A stretch of 20,617 bases of DNA from an uncultured Syntrophorhabdaceae bacterium (GCA_964393225.1 CAYMTB010000030.1:1-20617); one strand, 5' to 3'; numbered from the stretch's first letter, positions 1 to 18,202 are shown. The notes: generated from the sequence alone by a model not told the origin. Made by a program: numbers and translations.

Positions 1-1150
1 AAGCATCTGTGTGAAAAAGTTGCCGTGAAATGCCGTGAGTTTTGCAAGAGGGCCAATGTTGATTATGATAGGGGGCTGAATGGGCTTCTCGCCATCAAAC
101 CCTCCAGGTGGTCCTTGTGGTTCTTGCCGCCCAGCCTGTGTCTTTTTCCACTCTGCTTTCTTTATCTCTTCGTTCTTTCTTTCTTCCACACCTTCATCGT
201 ATTTCTGTTTTTTTAGTTTTGTGTCTTTGAGGAGGTCTTTGATTTCCGCGTTTTCAGGAAAATGAACGCGCAGTTTATCCAGATCTCGCTGGGCTTCATT
301 GAACTTTTGCGTGTTAACGAGCAACATTATATCGGCAAGGCTTTCTTGTAGTTTTAGCAGCTTCACTTCCTCGTCCAGTTTCTTTTCTTGCTCGTCCTTC
401 CTTCTTTCAACCTCCTGTATTTTCTCCCATATTTCCTCGGCCATCTTTGGGTATGCCTTTTCGGCATCCTGATAAAGATCTATAGCCCTCTGAAAATTAT
501 TCGATTCTTTGTAACGATCACCCCTTGTTACAAAACCTAAGGCCTTGTTTCTCGCTTCATCGTCAATCATCTCTTCGGCACATGCTTCACAGCATCTCCG
601 TTCCTTATTGTAGTGTTCTTTGTGTAAAGGTCCTTTTGCACAGAGTTTACAGGTAAATGATTGCTGGCCATCTTCAATCGGGTGTCCGCACAATGCGCAG
701 TTTATGGCTTCAGGTTTTATTTCTCTTGCACATTCATTACAAAAATATGTTTTGGGGTCTTGATGTTCGTTACAAATTAAATCCCTATTACATTTTGAGC
801 ACGTGAAATAGTTGTCCTTTACAAGCCTCTTGCAGATCGGACATCTTTCGCCGATCTTCGTAGCACTCCCCGGCTCTTTAGATTTTTCCTGATGTATATG
901 TACCTCTTTCTTGTTGACCGTTAAACCACCTCTTATTATTGAGCCCTTTATATTGACATCATCGCTTCTTGTCGTCTCCGCATTTTTCGTATCTTCTTCC
1001 TGGGTCTTTGTCGCAGAGTTTGTAAAAGCCTCTTTATTGATATGAGCATTTATGACCTTCGCGGTTTCACTCTTCGACAAAAGGGTGCTGCAGTTAAAAC
1101 ATATTTCATCTCCCTCTTTATTCGGCTGTCTACATCTCGGACAATCCATG
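1..1150 (-). CDS. Partial CDS: multi-zinc-ribbon, TPR-like/coiled-coil protein. The N-terminus (ATG as cat at 1148-1150) is in the window. The open frame runs off the left edge, so the C-terminus is missing.
   Basis: I translated the minus strand by hand from 1150 to position 1 and found no stop (about 383 aa). The ORF track lists only complete ORFs, which explains its absence there. The N-terminus is MDCPRCRQPNKEGDEICFNCSTLL, a CxxC...CxxC zinc ribbon. There are at least four more Cys pairs (CPICKRL...CSKCNRD, CNECARE...CALCGH, CKLCAKG, RCCEACAEE). A TPR-like FQRAIDLYQDAEKAYP and an E/K-rich coiled coil follow, then a Gly/Pro-rich tail (QGPPGGFDGEKP). The 27-nt gap to the upstream gene fits operon membership. 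Confidence 0.6.
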
Positions 1151-1177
1151 GCCTTCTCCTGGTAGATTTGTTATATT

Positions 1178-1954
1178 TTAAACAAATTGCTTGTTTTCTT
1201 TTCCATTTAATTGCTTTCCTTTGAGCCAGAGTTCCCACCCCATCTCGATTATCGTATTGCTGAGACCCAGACTGTAAAACACATTCTCTATTTTCATATT
1301 TCTGCAGAGCGAAACCATCTTTGCTATGCTCTCCCAGCCCTGTGTTTCGATCAGGTACTCGATAATGCTGGCTGCTTCTGCATAGGCAAGCTGTCTTATG
1401 TTTTCATCCGTATGACTAAAAAGTCTCATTGAGAGCACCTCAATAGGAATGGTTTTGTCATTCTTTATTGCATTTTGAAGCATTGAGCGATATTGATCAG
1501 ACATTTGTTGAGATATGCAGACTGCAAGTCCTTCATTCAACCAGTCGGGACAATTACCGTGGCACATTAGATCAAGGGCAAGGTGCGTTATCTCATGTGT
1601 CAGGACTACGCACAAAGACTCGGTGTCGCCATTCTCGAGTTCCGAAATGACTCTGATCTCTCCATCATATATGCCTGCTATCCAGGAGGCGTAGCGACTT
1701 CTCGACCTCCCTTCCTGTCTCATTTCCTCTTTGGAGTTATAAATATGAATATCTATTCCCCCGGGATTATATCCAAACATTTTTTGTATTATGCTTTGCG
1801 CCCGTTTGACCGTTCGGAACAATGCAAGAATGTCATGGTTCGGGTTCTTGATGTGAAATGAAATATTAATATCGTCTTGAGAAAGTCTGACGAAATCATC
1901 CCCACCGATATAACTTGAATCTGCTCCCTCCAAGCCTGTTGTTTCGCCTTGCAT
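1178..1954 (-). CDS. Gluzincin-type zinc metallopeptidase (peptidase MA-like domain)
   Basis: The 258-aa ORF contains VVLTHEITHLALDLMCHGNCPDWLNEGLAV. This is HExxH followed about 19 residues later by a NEGLA-type glutamate, the thermolysin/gluzincin signature. It is tightly spaced, 29 nt downstream of the transglutaminase-like gene. Confidence 0.65.
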   Translation of the reverse strand: MQGETTGLEGADSSYIGGDDFVRLSQDDINISFHIKNPNHDILALFRTVKRAQSIIQKMFGYNPGGIDIHIYNSKEEMRQEGRSRSRYASWIAGIYDGEIRVISELENGDTESLCVVLTHEITHLALDLMCHGNCPDWLNEGLAVCISQQMSDQYRSMLQNAIKNDKTIPIEVLSMRLFSHTDENIRQLAYAEAASIIEYLIETQGWESIAKMVSLCRNMKIENVFYSLGLSNTIIEMGWELWLKGKQLNGKENKQFV

Positions 1955-1983
1955 AACCCGCCTTCCGGTTTGTCAGACTGTGC

Positions 1984-3207
1984 TCACAATGGTAACGGTG
2001 CCACCCTCTCTCTCGCAATTATCACATCTATAACGGCCTCAAAAGATTTTGAGCAATAAAAGATTCCCTGATCTACACATTCCTTGAAATTCTTCTCGGA
2101 TGTAAAGGTCGTCGAGTTAATGGGTAAAATAAAACCTTCTTCTATTGCATTTTTGTACCGGTCATATCGTCCGTTTAAAAAAGCCATGTATTCTTCGTTA
2201 TTATCTATCCTCTTTTGTGAATACAGCTCTTTATCATGTTCCCAGAATTCATAAAACTTACCCATTGAGCGCCATACACCGAGAAAGGCATGGCCTGGAA
2301 TGAGAAATATCAGTGGATATAATCCGATCCTTTCCAAGCAAGCCGCATATAACAGGGCAAGATCGAGGCACGTCCCACGCCCTATATCCAGTATCTCTTC
2401 GGGCGGTAAGATTTTTTGCCCGGTTTTTTCAAAGCTTGCCGGAGGGTTTATGTATTTGATCTGGAGCTCATTCTGCAAAATAAGATAAAAGGCATGTGTC
2501 ATCGCAGTAACCTTATCTGCATTTCCCGACTGGTATCCGTCGAGAGATGATCCGAAATTGAGCTGTTCAAGGTAACTACCGGCCCCCTTTATGGCTTCTT
2601 TGACCGCAGTGGAATTAGGAAAGATAAAGCTTGCCAGTATATCGGGAAACAGCGGATGAAAATACCATTCATGATATGCCAGCACTTGAATTGGTCTTGT
2701 GTCAGCAAAGAGGGTATTTCCATCGGAAGCAATTTCAAACTTTAATGAGGCTTGCTCTTTTTCGTTCACATCACGGAGTCTCTTCTTGTCAATAGAGAGA
2801 TTAATATCCTCGTTCGTAAATTCTATATGCTGTCTTGATGGAATAGACTGGACAGTTTTCTCCCAGGGTACACAGTAGTCAGGGGCAAGTTCAATCCTGA
2901 GAATAATGTTGTGGATATCCGAGTATGATACATTGGAAATTTTAATGCTGTTCAGGAAGGGTACTCCACAATTCACAAGAGACCAGTTGAGCCTGTCCCA
3001 GCAATCAATATCAACCTGAATGTCCCTGGATTCTGCAGCCTTGAAACTGGTAAATCCCGACGATGAGCTCCGCTTGCCCGCTGTTTCGGATAAACCAGGG
3101 CTATCAGTATATCGTTTTTCGATATCAACCTTTGTAAAATCATGACCGCATGACGGACAGGTATTGTCGAGAATGCTGACTTCGGCCTTGCACCTTTTAC
3201 AGATCAT
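1984..3207 (-). CDS. N-terminal zinc-ribbon protein with a C-terminal transglutaminase-like cysteine protease fold
   Basis: The 407-aa ORF starts MICKRCKAEVSILDNTCPSCGHDF (CxxC-x11-CxxC). The C-terminal region GRGTCLDLALLYAACLERIGLYPLIFLIPGHAFLGVW...EHD fits the Cys-His-Asp transglutaminase-like core. Its start overlaps the stop of the upstream kinase gene by 4 nt. Confidence 0.7.
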   Translation of the reverse strand: MICKRCKAEVSILDNTCPSCGHDFTKVDIEKRYTDSPGLSETAGKRSSSSGFTSFKAAESRDIQVDIDCWDRLNWSLVNCGVPFLNSIKISNVSYSDIHNIILRIELAPDYCVPWEKTVQSIPSRQHIEFTNEDINLSIDKKRLRDVNEKEQASLKFEIASDGNTLFADTRPIQVLAYHEWYFHPLFPDILASFIFPNSTAVKEAIKGAGSYLEQLNFGSSLDGYQSGNADKVTAMTHAFYLILQNELQIKYINPPASFEKTGQKILPPEEILDIGRGTCLDLALLYAACLERIGLYPLIFLIPGHAFLGVWRSMGKFYEFWEHDKELYSQKRIDNNEEYMAFLNGRYDRYKNAIEEGFILPINSTTFTSEKNFKECVDQGIFYCSKSFEAVIDVIIARERVAPLPL

Positions 3208-5018
3208 ACAATAGCATTCCTTAATTCGTTTATACTCTGCCAGCGTTTCTCGCGCTCAAAAAGTATGCATTTCTGGATAGCTTTGTTGATCCGAAGTGAT
3301 GCTGCATCACTCTCTACAAATACAGGGACATAGGTGTTGTCGTGGTCCGTTGTCTTTCCCGTCAATACCTCATAAAGTGTAATCCCGAGAGAGAAAATAT
3401 CATCCCTTTCGTCTACATCGGCAGAATTAGCCCTCTGCTGGGGCGATGCGTATGGGGTGGTATAGGCGTGAAAGGCTATCCTGGACATCTTTATATCATC
3501 TTTATCTTTAGCAAGACCAAAATCGGCAAGCTTAATCCTTGCCGGATCAAGCGAGGTGTCGAGGAGTATGTTTTTGGGCTTTATATCCCGGTGGACGATA
3601 CCATTCTTATGAATGTATTCAACGGCATCAAGTAGTTGTGTGGTGAGTCCCCTGAATATCCCGTGAGTGAGGGGTTTTTTCAGTATGAATTCATTGAGGT
3701 CCCCGCCACCGATATAATCGAGGACAATGTAATGTTCGCCATTGGCCTCACCGTATTCGTATCCCTTGAGTATGTTTGGATGATCGAGCTTTTCTACAAG
3801 GAGTCTCCCTTCCCTCTTGAATCTGGCAATAAGCATCTCTGGGGATGCTTGAGTAGAAAGCTTCTCAAGCATCAGGTATTTAATAACTATGGGTTGGTTG
3901 CCTTCTATCCTGATCCCTCGAAATAATCTTGCCATACCGCCAGTGGCAATCTCTTCGAGTTTCATGTATTTCTTATCAAATGCCCCTTCTTCCCCTTTTT
4001 GCTTATCGTAAACCTTTTTGAGTCTCTCTATGGCGTTTTTAAGATCTGATTCTTCATGGGAAGTAAGTTTCCTGTCATACTCCGACGTTGGGTCAGTGGT
4101 AAGGAGTTTTTTCATGTCAAGCTTGTTTATTACTCGTCTTAACTCTGAGGCAACTGGCATGTCCTTTTCTGCACTATAGATATCGAGTACTGTTTGTCGG
4201 TTCACTTCTCCGTTCTCTTCTATTACCTTCAAGAGATACGTTGCAGCGTCTTTCCTGAGCTTTGCATCGGGGCTTTCTCTCAGGAAGTCACAGAGGGCTA
4301 TAGGGTCAAGGGGGAAAAGTTGTTTGGTTGGTCCTTCATTGGCATTAATATGGCGCTCATGATCTGCTTTATTCTCTTTCTTCTTCTGCTTGCCTGGTTC
4401 GCTGATAGGCCGACAAAGCAGTACATCTTCTATAAGTCTCCTGATTTCGCTTGCTGTCAGATTAATTTCCTTACTCCTGACTTGATGTGCTTTTTCAGGT
4501 AATTCAGGAAAGCCAACGATATGGAACCACGGCAACAAATTAAAGTTGAAGTATAATTGAGATTCTTGGTGAAGACGTGGGGAAATAGCTACGATGCTGC
4601 TTATCTGTTTAAACTCTGTATGTTCGGCTTTCTGGGATGCAATAAACCTGGGACGATTTTGGTTCAGAAAATCTCTCAGCGCAAAGTAATAAGCTCTCAC
4701 CTGCTGAAAAGGATTCCCGTGTTTCCCTCCCTTAAGATAAGCTTGTTCACCGTTCTGCCCGTCCATAATGAGCCATTCCCCGTTTTCCGACGCCTTAATC
4801 GGCTTTGAACATTCCTTCAGTTCAATGATGATGATCCCATTTTCCTTAAAAACAGCAAGGTCCATATCTGCAATACCACAACTGAAGTTAAAAGCTACAC
4901 CGACAAAAGTATCCAAACTGGAGAATTTTGCAGAGAACATGTCTATTATCTGTTGCTGGGCTGACACTTCATGGGCATATTCAAACTCCGGTTTGCCCGT
5001 CCAGAACTCTATCGGCAT
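3204..5018 (-). CDS. NERD (nuclease-related, PD-(D/E)xK-like) domain fused to a Hanks-type Ser/Thr protein kinase
   Basis: The 604-aa ORF has an N-terminal region (residues ~10-125) matching the NERD pattern: EYAHEVSAQQQIIDMF, then ADMDLAVFKENGIIIIELKE (D...ELK catalytic-like motif), then ENGEWLI, then NPFQQVRAYYFALRDFL. The C-terminal half (~350-604) carries kinase subdomains: IATGGMARLF, IVIKYL (Lys), HRDIKPKNILL, ADFGLA, SPQQ (APE-like) and DIFSLGITLYEVLTG. A strong SD, AGGAGGGG, lies 3 nt before the ATG. Confidence 0.8.
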   Translation of the reverse strand: MPIEFWTGKPEFEYAHEVSAQQQIIDMFSAKFSSLDTFVGVAFNFSCGIADMDLAVFKENGIIIIELKECSKPIKASENGEWLIMDGQNGEQAYLKGGKHGNPFQQVRAYYFALRDFLNQNRPRFIASQKAEHTEFKQISSIVAISPRLHQESQLYFNFNLLPWFHIVGFPELPEKAHQVRSKEINLTASEIRRLIEDVLLCRPISEPGKQKKKENKADHERHINANEGPTKQLFPLDPIALCDFLRESPDAKLRKDAATYLLKVIEENGEVNRQTVLDIYSAEKDMPVASELRRVINKLDMKKLLTTDPTSEYDRKLTSHEESDLKNAIERLKKVYDKQKGEEGAFDKKYMKLEEIATGGMARLFRGIRIEGNQPIVIKYLMLEKLSTQASPEMLIARFKREGRLLVEKLDHPNILKGYEYGEANGEHYIVLDYIGGGDLNEFILKKPLTHGIFRGLTTQLLDAVEYIHKNGIVHRDIKPKNILLDTSLDPARIKLADFGLAKDKDDIKMSRIAFHAYTTPYASPQQRANSADVDERDDIFSLGITLYEVLTGKTTDHDNTYVPVFVESDAASLRINKAIQKCILFEREKRWQSINELRNAIV

Positions 5019-5045
5019 TTACCCCTCCTGAATGGTTTCAGTAAA

Positions 5046-7160
5046 CTAATCGGGTTCTATTTCGTATCTACAGGAAGGACATCGTTTTGCTGGCGCTTTG
5101 AATTCAATCTTCTTTTTGCAGCTCGGGCATATCGTTACATAGACAACCTCTTTTTCCGGCGTACCCATTTGAACATTATAGAAACCAGGTCCTCCTGGAC
5201 TTCCCCCGGGGCCAGGGTAAAATCCACCGGGGGGCCCGCCCTGGCCGTATGGAGGATATACAACATTCGGTCTCCCACTCTGAGCAACACCTACAGCAAT
5301 GTCCTTTGCCGTATCGAGGGCCTTGTTGTGTTCCCGCTCGAACTGAGCCATGGCCTTATCCTTTTCCTGGAGGGTTTTGTCTTTTTCCTCCATTATTTGC
5401 TTGTAGAATGCATCCCTCTCTTCATGAGATAAAGCTTCAAGGGCTTTTGCCAGTTCAGGTGATTTCTGTGCCATGTACCATTTGACCTTCTCCTCGGATA
5501 AATCCTTAAGGTTTTCGGATTCCCGCATCTCCTTGATTATCCTTGCCTGTTCAGGTCCCACCATGGCAAGAATTGCCTCTACCTTTACATTGTCAAAGGT
5601 TTTTATCTTATCTATCTCGTGCTGTTGAGCGGCACGTATTTTTTCCATTTCAAGCGCTTGCAGCTTTGTCTGTCTCTCTAATTCCGTCAACATACGTTCA
5701 TGGTCTTCTTTGCGGTTTACTGCCTGTAATTTTTCCAAGGCTAAGAGATCGTTCTCATCTTCCAGTTTTTCCAGTTCTAATTCGATCCTTTTCTTTTCTG
5801 CTTCGGTTTTGGCTTTATCCAGTTCTATCCTGAGAGTTACTTCGCTGTTCCTGGCCTGCTCTTCCCTTGCAATAAGGTTCCGAATCTTCAGTTCATCTAT
5901 TTCAGCATTTAACTGAACCTTTTTCTTCTCAATCTGTTTTTCAAGAACCTCTTTTTCTATACCTTCCTTCCCTACCAGCCTCTGTCTCTCGTAGTCCAGT
6001 TCCTGCTGCAGGGAAAGCTGCCTTATTGCAAATTGCCTTCTAAGATTATGATCCACCGCCTTCTCGTCAAGCGTTATCTTTAACTCCCTCATTTCTTCAT
6101 CACGCAGAAGCTTTCCCTTTTCTATCTCCATGAGAAAAATCTCAATTTCCTCATCGGATTTACCCTTGTCAAGAAGGTATTCCTTCAGGCGTTTCCTTGT
6201 ATCGGCGGCAACCTTCCATTCACCTATTTCCTGATCAGCTTCAACGCCTTTTACGTCCAGATCAGCTTCCATTTTTGCCCGTTTCCGATCAACCATTGCC
6301 TTGGACATCATCCGGTAGTGTTCCGTTTTCTTTGTTTCCTCGAAGATATCCTGGAGCTGAGACTCATCGTACACGTCAAACAGCCTTTTTCTCCTCTTCA
6401 GTTTTGCATCTTCTTCGCTCACGAGGAGAAAAATCTCCTCGTTAATGCCCCTTATCTTGTCATAACCCTTAAAATTGTAGTCGACTGTTCGAAGCTGTAT
6501 AAAACGAAAACCATTCCGCTCGAAAGTCCTTTCAAGGTGTTTCTCCACAGAGACCTCAAACTCACGCTTCAAGTCTAAATTCCAGTTAAGATCACTCACT
6601 GACCTTTCACTTATTAATGCATTGAATGCATTCTGCATTTCATAATAGAGAGACGCCCTCAATTCATTCTTAGGGTATCGCTCCATGCGCTTCACGACAT
6701 TGTTGTAGAATTTCGTGTAATCTGCTATCTGGACTACGACATTGCAACGGATATCTATTGAAAGAGGGTCTTTCGTATATGCCGGTATGATTATGGTAAA
6801 TTCAAGATCACTCGCATCGACAATAACGGCAGTAACCTTTCTGTATGTTCCGGGAATAGAATCAGAAATCTCGTTAAGCCAACCTTCGTTGTATAGGCCT
6901 GGTTCTAATGTCTCTGCAAGGGCACCATTAATAAAGAGAAGTGCCTTGTTTCCCTGTTCTACGACGATACCTTTTTTCAGCGTTGCGGGGAAATCGTCGT
7001 AGTCAACGCGGGTGGCAATATACTCAGCATCCCTTTGCCATGAAGCGCCTTCCATATTTGACGCTTCAGGTGTTTCGCCGAGTTGCTCCGAGCATTCTAT
7101 GCAATATCTTTCCCCGGCTGGATTTTCGTGACCCTTGGAACACCTGACTATTTCCGGCAT
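5046..7160 (-). CDS. SPFH/band-7 (flotillin-like) protein with zinc ribbons at both termini, a long E/K-rich coiled coil and a Gly/Pro-rich tail. No transmembrane segment.
   Basis: The 704-aa ORF starts MPEIVRCSKGHENPAGERYCIECSEQL (zinc ribbon). The SPFH core follows: KGIVVEQGNKALLFINGALAETLEPGLYN ... TIIIPAYTKDPLSIDIRCNVVVQIADYTKFYNNV ... LRASLYYEMQNAFNALISERSVSDL. After that come ~330 aa of charged heptad-like sequence, then GGPPGGFYPGPGGSPGGPGFY, then CPSCKKKIEF...CPSCRYEIEPD (second zinc ribbon). An SD, GAGGGGG, precedes the ATG. Confidence 0.7.
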   Translation of the reverse strand: MPEIVRCSKGHENPAGERYCIECSEQLGETPEASNMEGASWQRDAEYIATRVDYDDFPATLKKGIVVEQGNKALLFINGALAETLEPGLYNEGWLNEISDSIPGTYRKVTAVIVDASDLEFTIIIPAYTKDPLSIDIRCNVVVQIADYTKFYNNVVKRMERYPKNELRASLYYEMQNAFNALISERSVSDLNWNLDLKREFEVSVEKHLERTFERNGFRFIQLRTVDYNFKGYDKIRGINEEIFLLVSEEDAKLKRRKRLFDVYDESQLQDIFEETKKTEHYRMMSKAMVDRKRAKMEADLDVKGVEADQEIGEWKVAADTRKRLKEYLLDKGKSDEEIEIFLMEIEKGKLLRDEEMRELKITLDEKAVDHNLRRQFAIRQLSLQQELDYERQRLVGKEGIEKEVLEKQIEKKKVQLNAEIDELKIRNLIAREEQARNSEVTLRIELDKAKTEAEKKRIELELEKLEDENDLLALEKLQAVNRKEDHERMLTELERQTKLQALEMEKIRAAQQHEIDKIKTFDNVKVEAILAMVGPEQARIIKEMRESENLKDLSEEKVKWYMAQKSPELAKALEALSHEERDAFYKQIMEEKDKTLQEKDKAMAQFEREHNKALDTAKDIAVGVAQSGRPNVVYPPYGQGGPPGGFYPGPGGSPGGPGFYNVQMGTPEKEVVYVTICPSCKKKIEFKAPAKRCPSCRYEIEPD

Positions 7161-7209
7161 TTTATACCCCCTCTATGGACTTATGGACTTTATGATAAAC
7201 TTGATTTCC

Positions 7210-8271
7210 TCATATTTTTCTATTTCTGAATTCATTTACAACATTCTTAATGGAGCGATGCAATGTATTTACATCCTTTTCGATATTATCTGTACCGTCT
7301 GCAGTAACCTTGTCGTATAGTAAGCCGCTTGCCTTTGTAAGGGTTTCGAGACTTTCCTTGAATTCTCTATCAAATTCGAGGGTCTCTTTCAATTCTCCTT
7401 TACTGCGCATTGCCGTACTCCCCCTGGCAGCGTTCTCAACGAGTTCCTTCAGGGCCAAGGCATCCATCTCCAGGTCTTTCATCATCCTGGCTGCCTTACT
7501 GCTGCCCTTGTCCATTGCTTTCGATTTTGCCTCGGAGATATCAGTAAGTACCTTGCCGACCTCCTTTGCAAGGTTCACCCGCGTTTTTACATCCTCTGTT
7601 ATCACATTTTCTTTCACCTTTGTCTTCACGCGGACCAATACTATCAAAGCAATAAAACCAAGGACGATGACAACAACCCCGATGAAAAGACCGTTTCTCC
7701 AAGGTGACACAGCAGTCACGGCAAAGTCCTTCGAGAAGACAATCTCGCCTTTCTCCACATCGTCGAGCTTCAGGTGAACCTTCATGGAATACGAGAGAAA
7801 ACCACTTCCGGCAGCATCCACCTTTCCCATGAGAAGCCCTTGAACGCCCTTGATCTTGCCATGCCGAATCCTCGTTTTCTCATCCATAATATCCTTGAGC
7901 TGGAGGCCCTGCTCTGTCAGTATCTTGTCGAGATCGGCCCGCTCGATTACTTTAAAGCTGGTTTTTTCCGTTATTGCTGACACAACAGCGTTCCTGATTG
8001 TGCCATCATCACCTTCAAGGTCGAGTACTGTTATCCGGACAATACTTCCTTCCACGGGAAGCGCCTTCACTAAAACTCTCTGGAAGTTTTTGATAGCCTG
8101 GCTTTTGAGATCCTCTGCTGCAAAAGCAGATATGGAAAAGAAAAACAGAAAAACGAAGCAAATGAATACAGCTGATAGGTTTTTTCTTTGCATTAAACCC
8201 CTCCCTAAGCGCCCCCGCAGATTTTTTTTAATAATTTCATTGTAAATTACGTTATCCATAAAGTCAATCAT
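7210..8271 (-). CDS. Membrane protein with an N-terminal signal/anchor, a periplasmic CsgG/LpoB-like region, one TM helix and a charged cytoplasmic tail
   Basis: The 353-aa ORF has a hydrophobic N-terminus, AVFICFVFLFFFSISAFAAE. The motif FKVIERADLDKILTEQGLQL is typical of the CsgG/FlgO/LpoB-type periplasmic fold. An internal TM, LFIGVVVIVLGFIALIVLV, is followed by an E/K-rich tail. The true start may be the internal MQRKNL. The gene abuts the stop of the upstream gene (8272). Confidence 0.45.
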   Translation of the reverse strand: MIDFMDNVIYNEIIKKNLRGRLGRGLMQRKNLSAVFICFVFLFFFSISAFAAEDLKSQAIKNFQRVLVKALPVEGSIVRITVLDLEGDDGTIRNAVVSAITEKTSFKVIERADLDKILTEQGLQLKDIMDEKTRIRHGKIKGVQGLLMGKVDAAGSGFLSYSMKVHLKLDDVEKGEIVFSKDFAVTAVSPWRNGLFIGVVVIVLGFIALIVLVRVKTKVKENVITEDVKTRVNLAKEVGKVLTDISEAKSKAMDKGSSKAARMMKDLEMDALALKELVENAARGSTAMRSKGELKETLEFDREFKESLETLTKASGLLYDKVTADGTDNIEKDVNTLHRSIKNVVNEFRNRKI

Positions 8272-9531
8272 TTACATTAGCTTCCTTGCTTCAAGATAAA
8301 TTGTTGACCCCTTTACGTTCTCAATGACAAAACTATTCAATCCCGCAATCTCTCTGATAAGATAATCGACATCTTTTCCTGCTTTGACACGCATCACCAT
8401 CTTTTCGGATATAATGTCCATTTTGACAGCCTTAATTTCCCTCAAATAGGGGATTGCTGATAACAAACCTTTTATTTTACCGATAGATGAATATCCCCCT
8501 GTTTCCCTGATTATAAGCGTAAAGCTCTTCACTTCTTTTTTGCTAAGAATCTTCATTGTCCCTTCAGTCAAAGATGTGGAAGCCTTTTGAAGGGCATCGA
8601 GGCACGCCTTATCTTCACCGCTCCCAAAGCCTTTAATATTCTGCCCTGAAGTAATGGTATTTACTTTGTTGCTTCCTATGTTATAAACCCTTGCGTGCCC
8701 CTTTGCATGCGCTGAATAGATTTCCTGTGTCTTTTCGCTAAAAGATGCTTCGACAGATCCCATAATAATAGTGTTTGCCAACAAATACATACCAAGGGAC
8801 TTAACGGCCGCAGCGCCTCCTCTTCCCGAAGAAGCAATGAGCCGTGTCAGTGTATCATTTTTCATTGTGCGGTAGCCCACAACGGTATACCCTTTTAATT
8901 TTACCTTTGAAATAATTTCTTGCTCAAGGATACGTTTTTTCGTGGGTTTTTTGTTGCTCTTTTCTTCAGTAATGACAATTATTCTGTCATCGAAGAGGTT
9001 TTGAGATATGGCCTCTTCAACAATTCCTTTGTTGATTTTAAACTCCATCCTCACATTTAAAGCGCCGCCATCATCTCTATTTTCCGAAAGCGTTTTGGTT
9101 TCACCAAAAATATCTCCTTCTTTTGCCTTGAAGACTTTCAGGAGATACACCTTCTCTTTTGAAACGAGGTCAGGATGTACATATAACCCGGCAGCTTTCA
9201 GGATTGCCTTTTCCCGTGCGTTCGCGATGGCCGCTCCGCGTGCTTCTTCTGTGTCCTTCCCTTCCGGTATCCCGGCTTTCCCTTCTGCTACAATAATCAC
9301 TGCGGTATCAGCTGCCTCCTGTGATGCCTGCCCTTTTATTGTGGTATCACCGGAAGTTAGAGGCGCTGCTGCAGCATATGCATGAATGAGAAGCGCCAGA
9401 TAAATGACGACTAAAAGCCCTATAGTTACAACCCGTGCCGCCTTAAACTGTATGCACATAAACCAATACCTCCATTTACTGTGTAATAATGTTTTCATGA
9501 TTGCCCCACAGCTTACTCCGGGGTAGTTCAT
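8272..9531 (-). CDS. Membrane-anchored periplasmic protein with an LPP20-like region
   Basis: The 419-aa ORF has a TM/signal anchor, VVTIGLLVVIYLALLIHAYAAAAP, and the motif TEEARGAAIANAREKAILKAAG, which resembles LPP20/FlgP-type lipoprotein domains. Its start overlaps the PP2C stop by 4 nt. Confidence 0.45.
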   Translation of the reverse strand: MNYPGVSCGAIMKTLLHSKWRYWFMCIQFKAARVVTIGLLVVIYLALLIHAYAAAAPLTSGDTTIKGQASQEAADTAVIIVAEGKAGIPEGKDTEEARGAAIANAREKAILKAAGLYVHPDLVSKEKVYLLKVFKAKEGDIFGETKTLSENRDDGGALNVRMEFKINKGIVEEAISQNLFDDRIIVITEEKSNKKPTKKRILEQEIISKVKLKGYTVVGYRTMKNDTLTRLIASSGRGGAAAVKSLGMYLLANTIIMGSVEASFSEKTQEIYSAHAKGHARVYNIGSNKVNTITSGQNIKGFGSGEDKACLDALQKASTSLTEGTMKILSKKEVKSFTLIIRETGGYSSIGKIKGLLSAIPYLREIKAVKMDIISEKMVMRVKAGKDVDYLIREIAGLNSFVIENVKGSTIYLEARKLM

Positions 9532-10373
9532 TTCCTTTTTCTTAGTATCCGGCGCATTAAACTTCGTTTTTTTGCCTCGACCACAATAACAGAAACATTA
9601 TCCGGTGCACCTCCCTCAATTGTCTCTTTAATAAGGGCTTCGCATTTATCCTTAGCAGAAATACTGTTCATCAGAATCTTACTTGCTACATCAACATTCA
9701 GGACCCTGAAGAGACCATCGGATGAGAGCAGAAATATGTCGCTGTCTCCAACATCAAATATACTGATATCGGGTTTTACCGCTTCTCTTGCGCCCACAGC
9801 CCTGGTCAAGGCATGGCTCAATCGATGGTTTTCTGCCTCCAGATCGGTAATCATGCCCAGATCAACAAGGTTTTGCGCCTGCGTATGGTCTTTCGTCAGC
9901 TTTTCCGTCGTTCCGCCCCGTATGCGGTAGGCCCTGCTGTCTCCTACATGGGCAAGGATGACCTTCTCATCCCTGAATAAAAGAAATGTCAGAGTTGTGC
10001 CCATTATTTCGTCTCCGGACTGCCCGTAGATATTCCGGTGAGCCTCCTGGATTGACATCGAAACAAGCGACATAATAGTGGAGTCGTCGCCCGCCCTATC
10101 TATCAAGTCTGGCACGATATTTTTCTTCATGAAATCATGGATCGCATTTACCGCTTCCCGGCTTGCAATCTCTCCCTTTGCATGCCCGCCCATCCCATCG
10201 GCGACGATGTAAAGCATAAGATCGTTGTCAACAAGGATACTATCCTGATTGTTTGTCCTCCTGATACCCTTATCTGTCATACCGTATCCGTTCATAGACA
10301 CTTTATGTGATTTCCTCTTTATCTGTGATTTGGATCTGTTTGTCATCCGCAACCTCGATCTGCTTTTCATCAT
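9528..10373 (-). CDS. PP2C-family Ser/Thr protein phosphatase (PstP/Stp-like)
   Basis: The 281-aa ORF reads MTDKGIRRTNNQDSILVDNDLMLYIVADGMGGHAKGEIASREAV... The DGMGGH metal-binding motif is present, with later acidic motifs (VGDSRAY, LLSSDGL). The basic N-terminal 27 residues of the longest ORF may not be translated, and the start is probably MNGYGMTDKG. The stop of the upstream gene overlaps this start by 1 nt (TAATG). Confidence 0.9.
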   Translation of the reverse strand: MMKSRSRLRMTNRSKSQIKRKSHKVSMNGYGMTDKGIRRTNNQDSILVDNDLMLYIVADGMGGHAKGEIASREAVNAIHDFMKKNIVPDLIDRAGDDSTIMSLVSMSIQEAHRNIYGQSGDEIMGTTLTFLLFRDEKVILAHVGDSRAYRIRGGTTEKLTKDHTQAQNLVDLGMITDLEAENHRLSHALTRAVGAREAVKPDISIFDVGDSDIFLLSSDGLFRVLNVDVASKILMNSISAKDKCEALIKETIEGGAPDNVSVIVVEAKKRSLMRRILRKRK

Positions 10374-10792
10374 TATTTTATGCTTATTGAATAATTGTAA
10401 AGCATTATTTTCTCTCCTATTGTAATCCTCGCCTTATTCTTGCCCGGTCTTTCACCTTTAATTGCTATACTATCTTCAGTGTGGCTCAGGATATTCCATT
10501 CCCCGCCGTTAATAAAAATATCACAGAGAACAGGCGGTATCCCCGGCCCTTTCAACGGGATGTCGCACTCGGGACTTCTCCCGATACGGTAATGGCGTTT
10601 TCTGAGGGGCATGCTGAGAAACACTGCTCCGTCTCGCATGACCGTCAAGAGACGCTCTGCCCTCTGTTTTGGCGAAGACATTCTTGCCGTACCATTTAAG
10701 ATGCTTGCGAAGAGAAGTAGGAGTGCGACAACCCCGGCGGAGGCCACAAAGACTGCGTTGAGCAGTTTTATCGTATAGTGAGTCAGTTCCAT
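10373..10792 (-). CDS. FhaB/FipA-like membrane-anchored FHA domain protein
   Basis: The 139-aa ORF has an N-terminal TM, LLNAVFVASAGVVALLLLFASIL. An FHA core follows: HYRIGRSPECDIPL...ILSHTEDSIAIKG. It sits between the fhaA-like gene and the PP2C gene, as in the actinobacterial fhaA-fhaB-pstP order. Confidence 0.75.
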   Translation of the reverse strand: MELTHYTIKLLNAVFVASAGVVALLLLFASILNGTARMSSPKQRAERLLTVMRDGAVFLSMPLRKRHYRIGRSPECDIPLKGPGIPPVLCDIFINGGEWNILSHTEDSIAIKGERPGKNKARITIGEKIMLYNYSISIK

Positions 10793-11707
10793 TTATGCCA
10801 CTTTCAGGAGTACTTTCTTGCCTACGGCAATAACATCGCCTTTTGCAAGCTCCGCTTCATCAATTTCAATACCATTCACCCCGGTCCCGTTCTTGCTTCC
10901 CATATCCTGAATCCTTAGTTTCCCCTGCCTAATGATGAGCTTAAAATGCATCCTCGAAATGCGATGTTCCTCATCTTTTAAAAGAATGTGTGCCTCCTTG
11001 CCCCTTCCAAAGGTGTATTCCCCTTCCTGGAGGGCAATCACGTCTCCTTTATCTTCACCATCAATAATTTCAAGCTTTACCCTTGCAGTATCAAAGTACT
11101 GTGTCAGCGATTCCTCGAAAATGTGTGTTCCCACATCATCAATAATCTTCGTATGCTGTTTTTCGTCCTTGCTGTAAGGGGCATTGACGGCATTATCTGT
11201 TCCATGGGGGGATTCCTTCGCGTGACCGGGGTTTTTCATCTCCTCCGGGTGTTCCTGGAAGAGAGGTATAACACCCTTTTTTTCGTCATGCTCAGGGAAA
11301 AGCGGCGCATTGCCCCTTGACTGTTGTGGAGACGATTTCTCCTTGAGAAAAGATGACTCCACCGCCATCTGATTGCGAAGCAGTCCAGCATCTTCCCGTA
11401 TCTCGATGTTGACAGATGTTGAAAGAAGCTTATATCCCTTTTTCCTGATTCTCTCGTTCAGTTTGTTTTTCAATTGTTCCTTGATACCCGAAAGAAGAGG
11501 GGAAATCTCTTCGTAGTCGAAGGGGCTGAGATACATGATGTAGACATTAGGCACAAAGGCCTTCTCCTCGATGCCGTATTTCTTTCGCTTTTCAAGCTCC
11601 CTGAAAAGCTTAATGAGTATATCTCTGGGCTGAATCTCCGTGGCAGACGTGTGAAAAAACCGTGTAAAGATACTAAAAACACCTTTAATCCTGTTAATGA
11701 ACTCCAT
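10793..11707 (-). CDS. FhaA-like protein: N-terminal DUF3662-like domain plus C-terminal FHA domain
   Basis: The 304-aa ORF has N-terminal IKGVFSIFTRFF...EIQPRDILIKLFRELEKRK...FVPNVYIMYLSPFDYEEI, a DUF3662-like pattern. The C-terminal region YTFGRGKEAHILLKDEEHRISRMHFKLIIRQGKLRIQDMGSKNGTGVNGIEI is a clear FHA domain. A strong SD, AAGGGAGGG, lies 5 nt before the ATG. Confidence 0.8.
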   Translation of the reverse strand: MEFINRIKGVFSIFTRFFHTSATEIQPRDILIKLFRELEKRKKYGIEEKAFVPNVYIMYLSPFDYEEISPLLSGIKEQLKNKLNERIRKKGYKLLSTSVNIEIREDAGLLRNQMAVESSFLKEKSSPQQSRGNAPLFPEHDEKKGVIPLFQEHPEEMKNPGHAKESPHGTDNAVNAPYSKDEKQHTKIIDDVGTHIFEESLTQYFDTARVKLEIIDGEDKGDVIALQEGEYTFGRGKEAHILLKDEEHRISRMHFKLIIRQGKLRIQDMGSKNGTGVNGIEIDEAELAKGDVIAVGKKVLLKVA

Positions 11708-11770
11708 ATTGCCCTCCCTTGTAAGTAATTTTTGGCCACATAGATTATTAGACTGATGAAAGGATTTTTT

Positions 11771-11797
11771 TATGCAGGTTAAATTATGATAGTTTTA
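11771..11797 (-). promoter_or_regulatory. Candidate sigma70-like promoter for the 10-gene fhaA-like operon
   Basis: On the minus strand there is TTGACT (complement of 11792-11797), a 15-nt spacer and TAATTT (complement of 11771-11776), about 60 nt upstream of the ATG at 11707. It sits in a 238-nt intergenic gap. This is a pattern match only. Confidence 0.25.
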
Positions 11798-11916
11798 CAA
11801 AAGTCAAAAACTGCTGCGGTAAAGCCTGTCATCGAATGGTTTGAATAGGTCACAATAAATAATTATCGCAGCTTATGCCGGGCGAGGGGCTTACACCTCA
11901 ACATAAAAAACTTCAG

Positions 11917-14100
11917 AAAACAGAAAATCAGAATCCAGAAGACAACTACCTGGGGGAAGAGGCAATCCTAAACCCGCTGTAGAAGTCCCTGTCCGACGGA
12001 TCGTCGCTGCCCCGGACCGAAGCACGGATGCTCCCCGGAATGCCGTCCCAACTGCCGCCACGAAGCACCCTGTCTCGACCAGAAGAAGGACCTTGAGGGT
12101 TGTCTCTGGGACTTCTTTTATAATAGTTTTCATCGTACAAGTCCGATACCCATTCCCAGACATTGCCGGTCATGTCATAGAGACCGAGGGAATTGGGCTG
12201 TTTCTGGCCTACAGGGTGGGTTTTACTGCCTGAGTTCAAGTAGTACCAGGCATAGTTTCCAAGTTCTGAATCGGAGCTTGTACCTGCATATTTCTCTTTC
12301 TTGCCGCCACTGCGGGCGGCATATTCCCACTCTGCCTCGGTGGGGAGGCGGTAGGATTTGCCGGTACGGGAGTTGAGTTTCTGGATGAACCCCTGGGCAT
12401 CGTCCCAGGAGACTTCTTCTACGGGACAGGTATCACCGCAGGATGAAAGGTGTGAGGGATTGCTGCCCATGATAGTTTTCCACTGTCCCTGGGTGACTTC
12501 GTATTTCCCTATGGAGAAATCAGAGACGCAGACATTGTGGACCGGTTTTTCATCGGATGAGCCACCGCCGAAGGTATCCCCCATGTCGAAACATCCGCCT
12601 TTCACGAAGACAAATTCCATGCCCGTTACAGGGTCGGTATAGGCAGAAACTAAAGTTGGTTTTGCAGGAACTGGCACAGTGGTTGCTGCTGTTTTCTTGG
12701 CAGGTTTTAGGAACTCATACAGATATTGTATGGTTTCTGCAGGAGTTACGTTTTCTTTATAATTACGATAATAGTATAGGCCTATTACGCCGGCAAAAAT
12801 GATAAAAGTGGTAACGAATAAGAAAACAATAACCTCTGTATCCGCTTTCCTCCAGGTCTGTGCTTTCCTTTCTTCTTGTTTTCTTTGTGCGTCTTCTGCC
12901 TCGTGTCTGCGTTTATCCTCTTCTTCCTGTTTCTTTTCTTCTTCCTTCTGTTTCTTTTCTTCTTTTACCCGCTTTAATTCCTGTTCCCGATGCTGCTTTT
13001 TCTGTTCCTGCTCCTTCCGTTCCTCTTCCTCTATCTTCTTCCTTTCAAGGAACTGTTCTCTTTCGCACCTCACCCTCTCATCTTTTTCCTGCTGTTGTTT
13101 TATGAGCGTTTCCTGACGCTCTTTCTCTTCTTCTTCTTTCTGTCTCCGCTCTGCCTCTTCAGCTTCGTTCTTGAGCCGCTTCTCTTCCTGCCTTTTCCGT
13201 TCACCTTCTTCGACCTCTTTCTGTCTTATTTCCTCTTCATGTCGTCGTTTTTCATCCTTTGTCTTCTCCACTATGTTAAGAAAAGCATCCGAGAGTTCCC
13301 TGGCATTCCCATAGCGATTCTCCTTTCGAATAGCAACACACTTCCGGTAGATGTCGTTGATCTCAGGAGGAAGAGATGGATTGAATTCTGTGGGCGGTTC
13401 CGGCCCTATGGTATTCTCCAGCGTAAGCAGTTCAAAGAGTACTACCCCTACGGAGTAGATATCGGAGCGTTGATCCACCAGGTCCGGTTTGTTTTTCTGT
13501 TCCGGAGACATGTAATAGGCAGTGCCGATTCCTTTCCTGGCATCTTTGTGGACATCGAGGACCATAGCAAGGCCGAAGTCGGTGAGCTTGAGGGCATTAT
13601 CGGCGGCAATGAGGATGTTCTCTGGTTTAATGTCCCTGTGGACGGTAAGCTTGTGGGCCTCAGTGAGGGCATCGCAGAGCTGGGAGATAATGGGATATGC
13701 TTCGTCAAGGGTAAAGGGCTCTCCGGTCTTCTTTCTCTCTTCGATAATCTCCCGTAAGGCCTTTCCTTCTATCCACTCCATGGTAAAGAATTCGAGACCG
13801 TTATAGTCATTGATGTCGTAGACTCTCACGATATTGAAGTGACGGAGGTCGCGGGATATCATTACCTCCTGTCGAAACATATTAAGGATATCCTGCGAAT
13901 TGAGGAGATGGGGGTGGATAACCTTGAGGGTGGTGATCCTCCCTCCGAGCTTTGTATCCTTTACCTTATAGACAACACCCATACCTCCTTTCTTGCCTTC
14001 TGTGATGATCTCATACCGGGAGGCAAAGAGGGAGCCGGGGGTAAAGGGGTTTTCTATGATCTCAGGGCCGGTGTAAGAGTCATCGATGTGGGCAAAGAGG
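11917..14100 (-). repeat. Copy A of a dispersed, mosaic gene duplication (kinase-FGE paralogs about 4.2 kb apart). It includes a conserved ~27-nt 3' flank.
   Basis: Direct comparison shows 12290-12330 and 16735-16775 share gcggcatattcccactctgcctc[g/a]gtggggaggcggta. The 13540-13740 and 17628-17830 segments are about 92% identical. The 3' flanks cagaaaacagaaaatcagaat[c/a]caga are shared. The middle segments (coiled coil/TM versus none) are unrelated. Confidence 0.7.
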
Positions 14101-14144
14101 TCGTCATGATTACCCCTTCCGCTGCCTCCCTTTCTGTCTGTCAA
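11946..14144 (-). CDS. Receptor-type Ser/Thr protein kinase (kinase-FGE paralog A): Hanks kinase, E/K/R-rich coiled coil, single TM helix, extracytoplasmic FGE-sulfatase (SUMF1-like) domain
   Basis: The 732-aa ORF has a kinase domain (KKGGMGVVYKV, LKVIH, HRDIKPENILI, TDFGLA, YMSPEQ, DIYSVGVVLFELLT). About 130 aa of KEEEKKQEEE-type repeats follow. The TM is VIVFLFVTTFIIFAGVIGLYYY. The FGE-like domain reads FVFVKGGCFDMGD...YRLPTEAEWEYAAR...GNVWEWVSD...RVLRGGSW...GFRIASS. The start as called is a TTG immediately after an in-frame TAA; an AGAAAGG SD-like sequence lies 8 nt upstream. Confidence 0.85.
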   Translation of the reverse strand: MTDRKGGSGRGNHDDLFAHIDDSYTGPEIIENPFTPGSLFASRYEIITEGKKGGMGVVYKVKDTKLGGRITTLKVIHPHLLNSQDILNMFRQEVMISRDLRHFNIVRVYDINDYNGLEFFTMEWIEGKALREIIEERKKTGEPFTLDEAYPIISQLCDALTEAHKLTVHRDIKPENILIAADNALKLTDFGLAMVLDVHKDARKGIGTAYYMSPEQKNKPDLVDQRSDIYSVGVVLFELLTLENTIGPEPPTEFNPSLPPEINDIYRKCVAIRKENRYGNARELSDAFLNIVEKTKDEKRRHEEEIRQKEVEEGERKRQEEKRLKNEAEEAERRQKEEEEKERQETLIKQQQEKDERVRCEREQFLERKKIEEEERKEQEQKKQHREQELKRVKEEKKQKEEEKKQEEEDKRRHEAEDAQRKQEERKAQTWRKADTEVIVFLFVTTFIIFAGVIGLYYYRNYKENVTPAETIQYLYEFLKPAKKTAATTVPVPAKPTLVSAYTDPVTGMEFVFVKGGCFDMGDTFGGGSSDEKPVHNVCVSDFSIGKYEVTQGQWKTIMGSNPSHLSSCGDTCPVEEVSWDDAQGFIQKLNSRTGKSYRLPTEAEWEYAARSGGKKEKYAGTSSDSELGNYAWYYLNSGSKTHPVGQKQPNSLGLYDMTGNVWEWVSDLYDENYYKRSPRDNPQGPSSGRDRVLRGGSWDGIPGSIRASVRGSDDPSDRDFYSGFRIASSPR

Positions 14145-18160: not shown

Positions 18161-18202
18161 GGTGTAAGATTTGTCGATGTGGGCAAAGGGGTCGTCAGTC
18201 AT
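16343..18202 (-). CDS. Soluble Ser/Thr protein kinase (kinase-FGE paralog B): Hanks kinase plus C-terminal FGE-sulfatase-like domain. No TM and no coiled coil.
   Basis: The 619-aa ORF has a kinase domain about 85% identical at protein level to paralog A (RKGGMGIVYKV, HRDIKPENILI, TDFGLA, YMSPEQ). The linker has no 20-residue hydrophobic stretch. The FGE-like domain reads VFVKGGTYEMGD...YRLPTEAEWEYAAR...GNVCEWCHDWFDENYY...RVLRGGCW...GFRVAAS. Confidence 0.85.
   Translation of the reverse strand: MTDDPFAHIDKSYTGSEIIEDPFSPGSLFASRYEIITEGRKGGMGIVYKVKDTKLRGKITALKVIHQNLLSSEHILEMFRQEVAISLDLSHPNIVRVYGINDYNSFEFFTMEWIEGKTLREIVDEKKETGKPFTLDEAYPIISQLCDALTEAHKHTVHRDIKPENILIASDNTLKLTDFGLAMVLDVHKDARKGIGTAYYMSPEQKNNPDQVDKRSDIYSVGVILFELLTLENVIGLEPPSELNPSLPKEIDSITKKALATKRENRYGDAEELSDALTKIAEKEKEIPIAEKTIKYVYKNNVWIYIPEFNIATGKYLAPVLNNNGDVISIKKYSDDYDIEKSIRSTLNKAFKNNYVKFIDDEINSNRLKKIVEKETEQYTCPVTGIESVFVKGGTYEMGDTFGDANDDEKPVHTVTVNDFYLGKYLVTQGQWKKIMGNNPSRFQEGDDYPVESVSWDAAQEFIKELNRKTDGKYRLPTEAEWEYAARERGKKVRFGTGKDSISTEEANFDASKDYVEPYSSAGEYREKTTQVGTFKPNSLGLYDMSGNVCEWCHDWFDENYYKDSPKDNPQGPSTGSPRVLRGGCWFSFPRNVRAASRFIYHPSIRYNVNGFRVAASPG

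Follow-up and report, generated by a model that had tools for sequence, protein, structure and literature searches.

The 20,617-nt stretch of DNA analysed here (hereafter, the window), from an uncultured Syntrophorhabdaceae bacterium (GCA_964393225.1 CAYMTB010000030.1:1-20617), carries at positions 1-7160 a block of five genes, K to O, which encode an SPFH scaffold protein, a fusion of a NERD domain with a Ser/Thr kinase, a transglutaminase-like protein, a gluzincin peptidase and a protein rich in zinc ribbons. A preliminary description, made from the sequence alone, regarded this block as a candidate conflict system or, equally, as a regulated-proteolysis or membrane-microdomain module tied to envelope signalling. 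Comparison with related loci reveals that the conserved unit is the pair of K and M, almost always accompanied by Hanks-type kinases, and not the five-gene block as a whole. Tentatively, and with somewhat less than even confidence, we view the block as the putative output end of a phosphorylation-controlled, SPFH-scaffolded thiol-enzyme module operating at the membrane or envelope. The five genes and the five that precede them are the following:

5046-7160, minus strand: K, 704 residues, SPFH protein with zinc ribbons at both ends
3204-5018, minus strand: L, 604 residues, NERD domain plus Ser/Thr kinase
1984-3207, minus strand: M, 407 residues, zinc ribbon, beta-sandwich and transglutaminase-like core
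1178-1954, minus strand: N, 258 residues, gluzincin
1-1149, minus strand: O, 383 codons from the Met codon at 1149, without a stop codon because the window edge cuts the gene
7210-8271, minus strand: J, CsgG/LpoB-like envelope protein
8272-9531, minus strand: I, exported or membrane-anchored protein
9528-10373, minus strand: PP2C phosphatase (Pfam match)
10373-10792, minus strand: membrane-anchored FHA protein (Pfam match)
10793-11707, minus strand: FhaA-like protein (FhaA_N and FHA matches)

All long open reading frames of the window lie on the minus strand. The five tightly spaced genes were all recovered, with gaps of 27 nt (K-L), -4 nt (L-M), 29 nt (M-N) and 28 nt (N-O), of which only the last departs from the preliminary description, where it had been given as 27 nt. 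The gaps further upstream amount to 49 nt (J-K), 0 nt (I-J), -4 nt (PP2C-I), -1 nt (FHA-PP2C) and 0 nt (FhaA-FHA). Because no gap from position 11707 to position 1 exceeds 49 nt, the ten genes look like one transcription unit, with the FhaA-like, FHA and PP2C genes as its proximal half and the K-O block as its distal end, in agreement with the earlier view that the block continues directly from the fhaA-like, FHA, PP2C and envelope genes on the same strand. A consensus scan of the window detected no promoter- or terminator-like sites in the intergenic gaps, the counts being no higher than in shuffled sequence, and scans of the window for Rfam families and tRNAs returned none. The gene order is identical on a 40-kb contig from a relative with more than 90% identity (L085; loci used for comparison are designated by L followed by three digits).

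Residues 66-224 of K match the Band_7 family (PF01145; E-value 8.7e-9, 36.1 bits against a cut-off of 23.6). The protein begins with a zinc ribbon, and the SPFH domain is followed by a long coiled coil, a Gly/Pro-rich low-complexity region and a C-terminal zinc ribbon (CPSC...CPSC). K has no transmembrane segment and thus lacks a membrane anchor of the kind present in flotillins, HflK/C and stomatins; among ten distinct homologues, all carry the terminal CxxC pairs and none has a hydrophobic stretch. The Band_7 match, the terminal Cys/His pairs and the missing transmembrane segment bear out the description of K as a cytosolic SPFH protein with zinc ribbons at both ends. Without an anchor of its own, K would need partner membrane proteins to reach the membrane. 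The YdjI-type profile Band_7_1 (PF13421) yielded 17.1 bits on K, below its cut-off of 24, and a word-indexed homology search with the K N-terminus, a search that is little informative, gave 3 homologues.

M consists of a zinc ribbon (residues 1-25), a disordered Ser/Thr-rich linker (29-54), a beta-sandwich (63-175) and a transglutaminase-like core (187-400), and has no transmembrane segment. At the level of sequence profiles, PF01841 was not matched and DUF553 reached an E-value of 0.023 only, below the cut-off. A confident AlphaFold model, however, suggests a transglutaminase-like fold, with the Cys predicted at the N-terminus of a helix, the His on the next strand and a resemblance in structure to known members. 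All 31 homologues retain C280 and H306, whereas the position aligned with the third residue of the triad holds N364 in standalone proteins and D or E in the relatives fused to helicases; because of N364, the triad of M is tentatively read as Cys-His-Asn. D394 is nearly invariant among the homologues. Thus, of the zinc ribbon and Cys-His-Asp transglutaminase-like fold proposed initially, the ribbon and, judging from the model, the fold stand, whereas the Asp would probably give way to Asn. A search of PDB sequences with the profile of M retrieved no relative, and a Foldseek comparison of M with viral structures gave weak matches to the beta-sandwich only.

M was chosen as the search query because it is the least promiscuous of the proteins. 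Neighbourhoods were read from precomputed Pfam annotation on seven contigs and from phmmer/BLAST scans of 90 loci, mostly derived from metagenome-assembled genomes (MAGs) or metagenome contigs, and the adjacency counts are a sample, covering 80 of 270 genome-scan matches. In 15 of the 17 distinct loci whose flanks were long enough, a K homologue lies next to, or near, an M homologue, and in most loci a Hanks kinase adjoins the pair. The K-M loci belong to at least three phyla (Desulfobacterota, Acidobacteriota and Eisenbacteria, besides unassigned contigs). Given that the NERD domain, N and O are limited to particular lineages, the five-gene block amounts to a lineage-specific elaboration of a K-M-kinase core. 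Joint conservation of the components of the block therefore holds across phyla for K, M and the kinases and fails for the NERD fusion, N and O.

The neighbourhoods fall into two types. In type B, which is that of the window and is represented by about six loci of the Desulfobacterota type, I, sometimes a 105-residue membrane protein, J, K and M are combined with an L-type kinase, FhaA, FHA and PP2C (L003, L087, L089, L090 and the window/L085; partly L004 and L001). The FhaA/FHA/PP2C trio is linked to I-J-K-M in L003, L085 and L090, and FhaA in L087 and L089. Gene order varies, the trio being located downstream in L003, and the retention of the linkage despite such rearrangement argues for a functional link. 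Immediately upstream of K (or of M, if K and M are inverted), homologues of J are encoded in L003, L004, L087, L089 and L090, and J-like proteins are present in L086 and L038. J is composed of a signal or transmembrane segment, a periplasmic CsgG/LpoB-like domain (CsgG, E-value 4e-9; LpoB, 22.5 bits against a cut-off of 22.3), a transmembrane segment and a cytoplasmic helical tail, with two hydrophobic segments in all. I belongs to no Pfam family, has one N-terminal hydrophobic segment and is conserved upstream of J, with homologues 31-39% identical in L087, L089 and L090 and further ones in L003 and L001. In L090, the gene after M (8406-10661), which shares a stop/start base with M, encodes a 751-residue Hsp70/MreB-like ATPase with O-like zinc ribbons in place of the zincin.

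Several type B and related loci also carry peptidoglycan genes. In L003, an unclassified metagenome contig, a single run at 13528-21194 comprises FhaA, a small FHA protein, PP2C, a kinase, RodA, PBP2 and SLT-LysM, directly after I-J-K-kinase-M-N; PBP2 and FhaA are located upstream in L087, an M23 peptidase gene follows M in L086, and the far end of the window carries an SLT-LysM gene. The actinobacterial cluster has the order fhaA-fhaB-pstP-rodA-pbpA-pknA-pknB. The window resembles it in that a single operon unites an FhaA_N plus FHA protein, a small membrane FHA protein, PP2C and a Hanks kinase, to which L003 adds kinase-RodA-PBP2 in the same order, but the actinobacterial cluster is not known to contain any SPFH, transglutaminase-like, zincin or NERD protein, and the window contains neither RodA nor PBP2. 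One could accordingly envisage a regulator of cell-wall growth or division, accessory to a FhaA-FhaB-PP2C-kinase-RodA-PBP2 elongation cluster, in which K and M act on proteins of peptidoglycan synthesis rather than on membrane damage. The L003 run, the genes upstream of L087, the M23 peptidase of L086, the LpoB-like domain of J and an FtsW/RodA-like gene together with SLT-LysM near a further locus, L030, are in line with it. Nevertheless, we regard this explanation as the least probable of those considered here, given that the window has no RodA or PBP gene, that many K-M loci, such as those of Acidobacteriota, have Snf7/Vps4-like genes in place of the peptidoglycan genes, and that the family is too rare for a general part of the elongasome.

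In type A loci, K and M are encoded in the same operon as a Snf7-family protein and either one or two Vps4-like AAA ATPases. This arrangement was found in L088, in a locus of Candidatus Eisenbacteria and in five Acidobacteriota MAG loci (the contigs reaching 1.96 Mb), with spans at 753-11095 (L006), 129-11422 (L086), 1-11029 (L012), 6814-12788 (L038) and 1-13182 (L088), one of these contigs being unassigned; L086 and L008 are one contig, CAYYTC010000008.1. Pfam annotation of L088 includes Snf7, MIT, AAA and Vps4_C, and in L038 the Snf7 match reaches 28.1 bits against a cut-off of 27.3, with M, the Vps4-like gene and Snf7 overlapping by 4 nt. The Acidobacteriota proteins show 33% identity to the Snf7 protein of L088 and 44% to its Vps4 protein. 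The label 'Vps4-like' is based on MIT and Vps4_C in L088, weak Vps4_C matches in Acidobacteriota and adjacency to Snf7-family genes. In a phmmer search of the PDB, two-domain Cdc48/p97 ranked first for the Vps4-like protein because the scores of the two AAA domains add up, so that this ranking does not tell Vps4 apart from other classical AAA proteins; the Snf7-like alignment, when used for a profile search of the PDB, had no match. The 237-residue protein of the Snf7/Vps4-K-M operons recurs as the C-terminal part of longer proteins in L009 (361-3078, 905 residues, with a subtilase domain, Peptidase_S8) and in L007 of Acidobacteriota (2-2131, 709 residues).

Archaeal ESCRT loci encode SPFH-coiled-coil-zinc-ribbon proteins, kinases, phosphatases and FHA proteins (Makarova et al. 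2024, PMC11188069). Like L088, L038 and L086, with which they may be compared, they contain Vps4 and Snf7-type ESCRT-III, along with PQQ or PEGA sensor domains; unlike the K-M loci, they have no transglutaminase-like component described in that work, and the window operon in turn is devoid of Vps4 and Snf7. ESCRT components have been reported to be unidentifiable in bacteria (PMC11188069), and a Vps4-like ATPase appears to be absent from them (2025 review, PMC7619361), for which reason the type A loci merit a separate look. The window itself does not qualify as an ESCRT-III/Vps4 locus, in contrast to the related L088 and L038 and, by homology, the Acidobacteriota loci. A broader proposal would be that K and M form a conserved accessory pair of a bacterial ESCRT-like machinery of the Snf7/Vps4 type, in which the SPFH protein nucleates or confines the polymer at the membrane and M processes polymer or cargo, with the window operon as a derivative controlled by kinases, FHA proteins and PP2C in place of Vps4, and with the same domain separately recruited into the ProA helicases described below; we consider this proposal rather unlikely as it stands.

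The kinase partner of M in the window, L, is divided into three regions:

4404-5018, minus strand: L residues 1-205, NERD (PD-(D/E)xK-like) domain, a lineage-specific addition
3984-4328, minus strand: L residues 231-345, helical middle domain without a Pfam family, which marks the 'L-type' kinase
3207-3983, minus strand: L residues 346-604, Hanks-type Ser/Thr kinase with intact catalytic motifs

The kinase matches Pkinase (PF00069) with an E-value of 5.2e-38, and HRDIKPKN, DFG and the beta-3 Lys are readable; the NERD domain scores 27.8 bits against a cut-off of 22.1 for PF08378, and the residues of its motif D51/D53...E66-L-K68 (D51, D53, E66 and K68) are invariant across three sequences, namely L and two homologues. 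The reading of L as a NERD domain fused to an apparently active Ser/Thr kinase is thus borne out by both profiles. L has no transmembrane segment, and the end of its gene, with the stop codon, shares 4 nt with the start of M; kinase and M are coupled likewise in L001 and L003, by an 11-nt overlap. Kinase orthologues in L001, L003, L087, L089 and L090 have no NERD domain, and their alignment with L begins at about residue 231, the middle domain being conserved together with the kinase in all five loci (E-values 2e-17 to 5e-30). A word-indexed search of 5.8 billion proteins with the NERD domain and middle region retrieved only two homologues, both standalone NERD proteins, which shows that the NERD-kinase fusion is rare, a low-yield search of this type otherwise saying little. 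Co-occurrence of a NERD-kinase with transglutaminase-like and zincin genes in other genomes, a check proposed in the preliminary description, was confined to relatives with above 90% identity, the fusion being restricted to the window and L085. Judged by sequence comparison, the NERD domain is a recent lineage-specific add-on to L, with a predicted nuclease fold.

N, a cytosolic protein without a transmembrane segment, matches Peptidase_MA_2 (PF13485; E-value 1.7e-14, 54.5 bits against 32.4) and carries HEITH...NEGLA, as expected of the gluzincin that it had been taken for. Its homologues directly follow M only in L001, L003 and L085, which are related loci of the Desulfobacterota type. In L003 (12038-13094) and L001 (12156-13212), an ECF-like sigma factor (Sigma70_r2 at 27.0 bits against a cut-off of 24 in L003; region 4, weak, in L001) and a protein of about 145 residues without a family are encoded directly after the N homologue, a hint at a transcriptional output that the window lacks. 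These genes, the presence of two peptidase folds with kinases in one operon and the known control of proteases by SPFH proteins (HflK/C-FtsH) would fit regulated-proteolysis signalling, in which kinase-coupled M and N cut a regulator, an anti-sigma factor for instance, and so let envelope signals switch on a regulon, while K merely restrains the proteases. Still, there is no sigma or anti-sigma gene in the window or L085, N is absent from most K-M loci, and the linkage of K-M with Snf7/Vps4 would be left unexplained, so that we judge such a scheme quite unlikely.

In L085, N is followed by O and a TPR protein. Profile matches confirm the zinc ribbons and the TPR-like motif of O, which also has a coiled coil. 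The full-length L085 orthologue has 659 residues, with a transmembrane segment at 433-451 and a periplasmic DUF4384 domain (32.3 bits against a cut-off of 27), and weaker O-like proteins are encoded in L090 and L012. The window protein is 83% identical to this orthologue over residues 1-343 and then diverges from it completely over the last ~40 codons (window 1-120; L085 13070-14039). This divergence near the window edge may be an assembly artefact of the contig end, and the real O protein should continue into the transmembrane helix and DUF4384.

The beta-sandwich and transglutaminase-like domain of M, for which there is no Pfam model, defines a large family, with 7012 representative clusters (50% identity) at E-values of 1e-3 or below and 2052 at 1e-30 or below in an exhaustive search. 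It occurs in three architectures, namely, standalone proteins of ~400-540 residues, mostly with an N-terminal zinc ribbon; proteins of ~750-780 residues in which it is fused to a full-length Vps4-like AAA ATPase (L030, P0095, P0097 and P0112); and helicase-nucleases of ~1900-2100 residues with DUF4011, AAA_11/12, the MTES_1575 nuclease and DUF3320. The L030 fusion comes from a cultured organism, Chitinilyticum aquatile DSM 21506 (NZ_KE387259.1, 8729-11008), accessible to experiment, and is 39% identical to a Vps4-like protein over 346 residues and 31% identical to M. Its gene overlaps small uncharacterised genes on both sides and is followed by a caspase-FGE-sulfatase gene; Mu/rve transposases and an S24 repressor are encoded upstream, and SLT-LysM and an FtsW/RodA-like gene downstream.

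The third architecture connects the family with a protein model named for anti-phage defence. Residues 74-407 of M match positions 1-314 of the NCBIfam model NF058533, 'anti-phage protein ProA' (E-value 8e-72), and the N-terminal domain of ProA-type helicase-nucleases has been labelled 'Transglutaminase' (Anantharaman et al. 2013, PMC3710099). The Cys and His are conserved in both M and the ProA N-terminal domain. The two differ in that ProA-type proteins are ~1900-2100 residues long, solitary and mobile, whereas M starts with a zinc ribbon and is partnered by an SPFH protein. ProA-type genes are carried by 76 plasmid records, and one, which is flanked by IS110 elements on the IncFIB plasmid NZ_OP378641.1 of Klebsiella michiganensis (L091, 7995-13886), encodes 1963 residues annotated merely as 'DUF3320 domain-containing protein'; standalone M homologues, by contrast, were not found on plasmids. 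M itself is not a member of the ProA family, as it scores 242 bits against a cut-off of 1500 and has none of DUF4011, AAA_11/12, MTES_1575 and DUF3320. A literature search on ProA retrieved no defining paper, DUF4011 giving incidental mentions only, and searches on ProA, the domain combination and bacterial Vps4 retrieved no description of the system.

This homology, together with the mobility of ProA-like genes, is one reason to entertain a conflict or abortive-infection system, in which kinases, FHA and PP2C would gate toxic effectors, namely a NERD nuclease, a transglutaminase-like peptidase and a zincin, that kill or arrest the cell, or attack invader proteins, upon infection. The N-terminus of L matches the PADLOC candidate PDC-M16A (E-value 2.8e-23) and its kinase the PD-T4-6, MADS6 and Stk2 models, the distribution of the loci is patchy, and the L030 fusion is situated beside the caspase-FGE-sulfatase gene, the transposases and the S24 repressor, FGE-sulfatase and caspase domains being frequent as effectors where multicellular bacteria have conflict systems (PMC7159879). 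The kinase matches, however, are generic and far below the NCBIfam cut-offs (MAD6, 111 against 460 bits), and PADLOC-DB v2 contains no match for K, M, N, O, I, J or either FHA protein, matches being confined to the kinase, NERD and PP2C. NERD, the sole nuclease, is absent from all orthologous loci except the near-identical ones. Standalone M homologues are on chromosomal contigs, and in about eight Pfam-annotated loci their flanks were seen to hold kinase, envelope or housekeeping genes and no recognisable defence gene, be it of the restriction, CRISPR, Abi or toxin kind. No plasmid-borne standalone M protein and no meaningful viral structural match came to light, and the linkage to RodA, PBP2, SLT and LpoB-like genes is not easily explained for an immunity system. 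Hence, the conflict hypothesis draws indirect support from ProA homology and the likeness to PDC-M16A, the genomic context points the other way, and we deem it unlikely.

Kinase- and phosphatase-gated systems such as Stk2, the TerY-P triad and the Fha-PpkA-PppA pathway of the type VI secretion system (T6SS) likewise combine a Hanks kinase, PP2C and FHA with putative effectors in one operon. Assignment to the TerY-P triad or the T6SS phospho-pathway was rejected, no vWA (TerY) or T6SS family being present among the window proteins, as was assignment to Stk2, PD-T4-6 or MADS6, for which only the generic kinase domain matches, far below the family cut-offs. In agreement with the preliminary description, the combination corresponds to no named defence system, there being no PADLOC model for K, M, N and O.

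The closest characterised analogue is the PspA-YdjGHI (SamGHI) envelope-stress system of B. subtilis. In this system, the membrane proteins YdjG/H recruit YdjI, which then brings in PspA, an ESCRT-III homologue; when YdjG/H are lost, peptidoglycan synthesis is delocalised (PMC8581546; bioRxiv 10.64898/2026.02.06.704340). K shares with YdjI/SamI a soluble SPFH domain, a stretch of low complexity plus a C-terminal zinc finger (PMC8581546) and, much as the Bacillus SPFH protein is tied to an ESCRT-III-superfamily protein, relatives of K-M occur with Snf7-family genes. Among the differences, an additional zinc ribbon at the N-terminus and a far longer coiled coil set K apart, a scan of the window proteins revealed no PspA, YdjG or YdjH homologue, and the Bacillus operon includes no transglutaminase-like enzyme, kinase, FHA protein or PP2C. 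A second parallel is offered by the pairs of SPFH proteins and proteases, HflK/C with FtsH and stomatin with its operon-partner protease. Here, too, the gene for an SPFH oligomer stands beside peptidases, which suggests a scaffold or cage limiting substrate access, and the fusions of Vps4-like AAA ATPases with transglutaminase-like domains mirror the AAA-plus-peptidase layout of FtsH; yet K has no membrane anchor, the peptidases are a transglutaminase-like thiol enzyme and a Peptidase_MA_2 zincin instead of FtsH or an NfeD-type serine protease, and the known pairs are not known to be under the control of kinases, FHA proteins and PP2C.

By analogy, the phospho-controlled envelope module proposed at the outset may work as follows. 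The envelope-spanning proteins J and O and the membrane-spanning receptor-type kinase E, in which a transmembrane segment precedes the FGE-sulfatase domain, would report on the state of the periplasm or envelope. Kinases, including the M-coupled L, would phosphorylate components of the module, and FHA proteins would read the marks and PP2C erase them. K would oligomerise as a membrane-proximal scaffold, with J or O providing zinc-ribbon or tail contacts for its recruitment, on the model of soluble YdjI/SamI, which YdjG/H bring in. Following the SPFH-plus-protease logic of HflK/C-FtsH and of stomatin with its partner protease, the scaffold would position M, and in this operon also the zincin N, to cleave, de-conjugate or cross-link a protein substrate. 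In eukaryotes, thiol proteases and deubiquitinases act together with ESCRT-III and Vps4, which provides a parallel for M.

In favour of this module count the adjacency of K and M, that of the kinases and the I-J-K-M synteny, the Snf7/Vps4-like genes that share operons with K-M (L006, L008/L086, L012, L038 and L088) and the fusions of Vps4-like ATPases to the M-type domain, as well as the YdjI/SamI-like architecture of K and the similar set of proteins in archaeal ESCRT loci. The linkage of K-M to peptidoglycan genes in L003, L087 and L086 and, through SLT-LysM, in the window speaks for a place at the envelope, and the lack of defence genes in the readable flanks and of PADLOC models for K, M, N and O counts on the same side. 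Other observations weigh against it. The support throughout is guilt by association, through domain content and gene neighbourhood. The 15 genes of the window include no ESCRT-III, Snf7, PspA or Vps4 gene, and hhalign comparisons of the Acidobacteriota proteins of 202, 205 and 237 residues gave no support for them as Snf7-like. The M domain is common to the plasmid-borne, IS-flanked ProA helicase-nucleases, NERD resembles a PADLOC candidate, and the L kinase scores best, if generically, against defence-kinase models. The rarity and phyletic patchiness of the standalone M family suit an accessory or defence role as well, and the Vps4-transglutaminase-like fusion of Chitinilyticum adjoins a caspase-FGE-sulfatase gene and transposases. 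On balance, of the two options left by the preliminary description, the genomic context better supports the regulated-proteolysis or membrane-microdomain module tied to envelope signalling.

Upstream of the ten genes, the window encodes further components with kinase and FHA domains:

11946-14144, minus strand: first Ser/Thr kinase-FGE-sulfatase fusion, with a transmembrane segment and a long Glu/Lys-rich coiled coil
14212-16002: zinc-ribbon protein with two FHA domains, between the two kinase-FGE-sulfatase genes
16343-18202, minus strand: second Ser/Thr kinase-FGE-sulfatase fusion, a paralogue of the first without a transmembrane segment

Taken together, the M domain emerges as a large family lacking a Pfam model, with three architectures and an obligate-looking SPFH partner, and it may hint at the role of the N-terminal domain in ProA-type anti-phage helicases. 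The bacterial operons that combine Snf7-family and Vps4-like genes bear on the question of whether Vps4-driven ESCRT-III remodelling exists beyond archaea and eukaryotes, and the locus described here offers a testable connection of Ser/Thr phospho-signalling and SPFH scaffolds with envelope proteolysis in bacteria.

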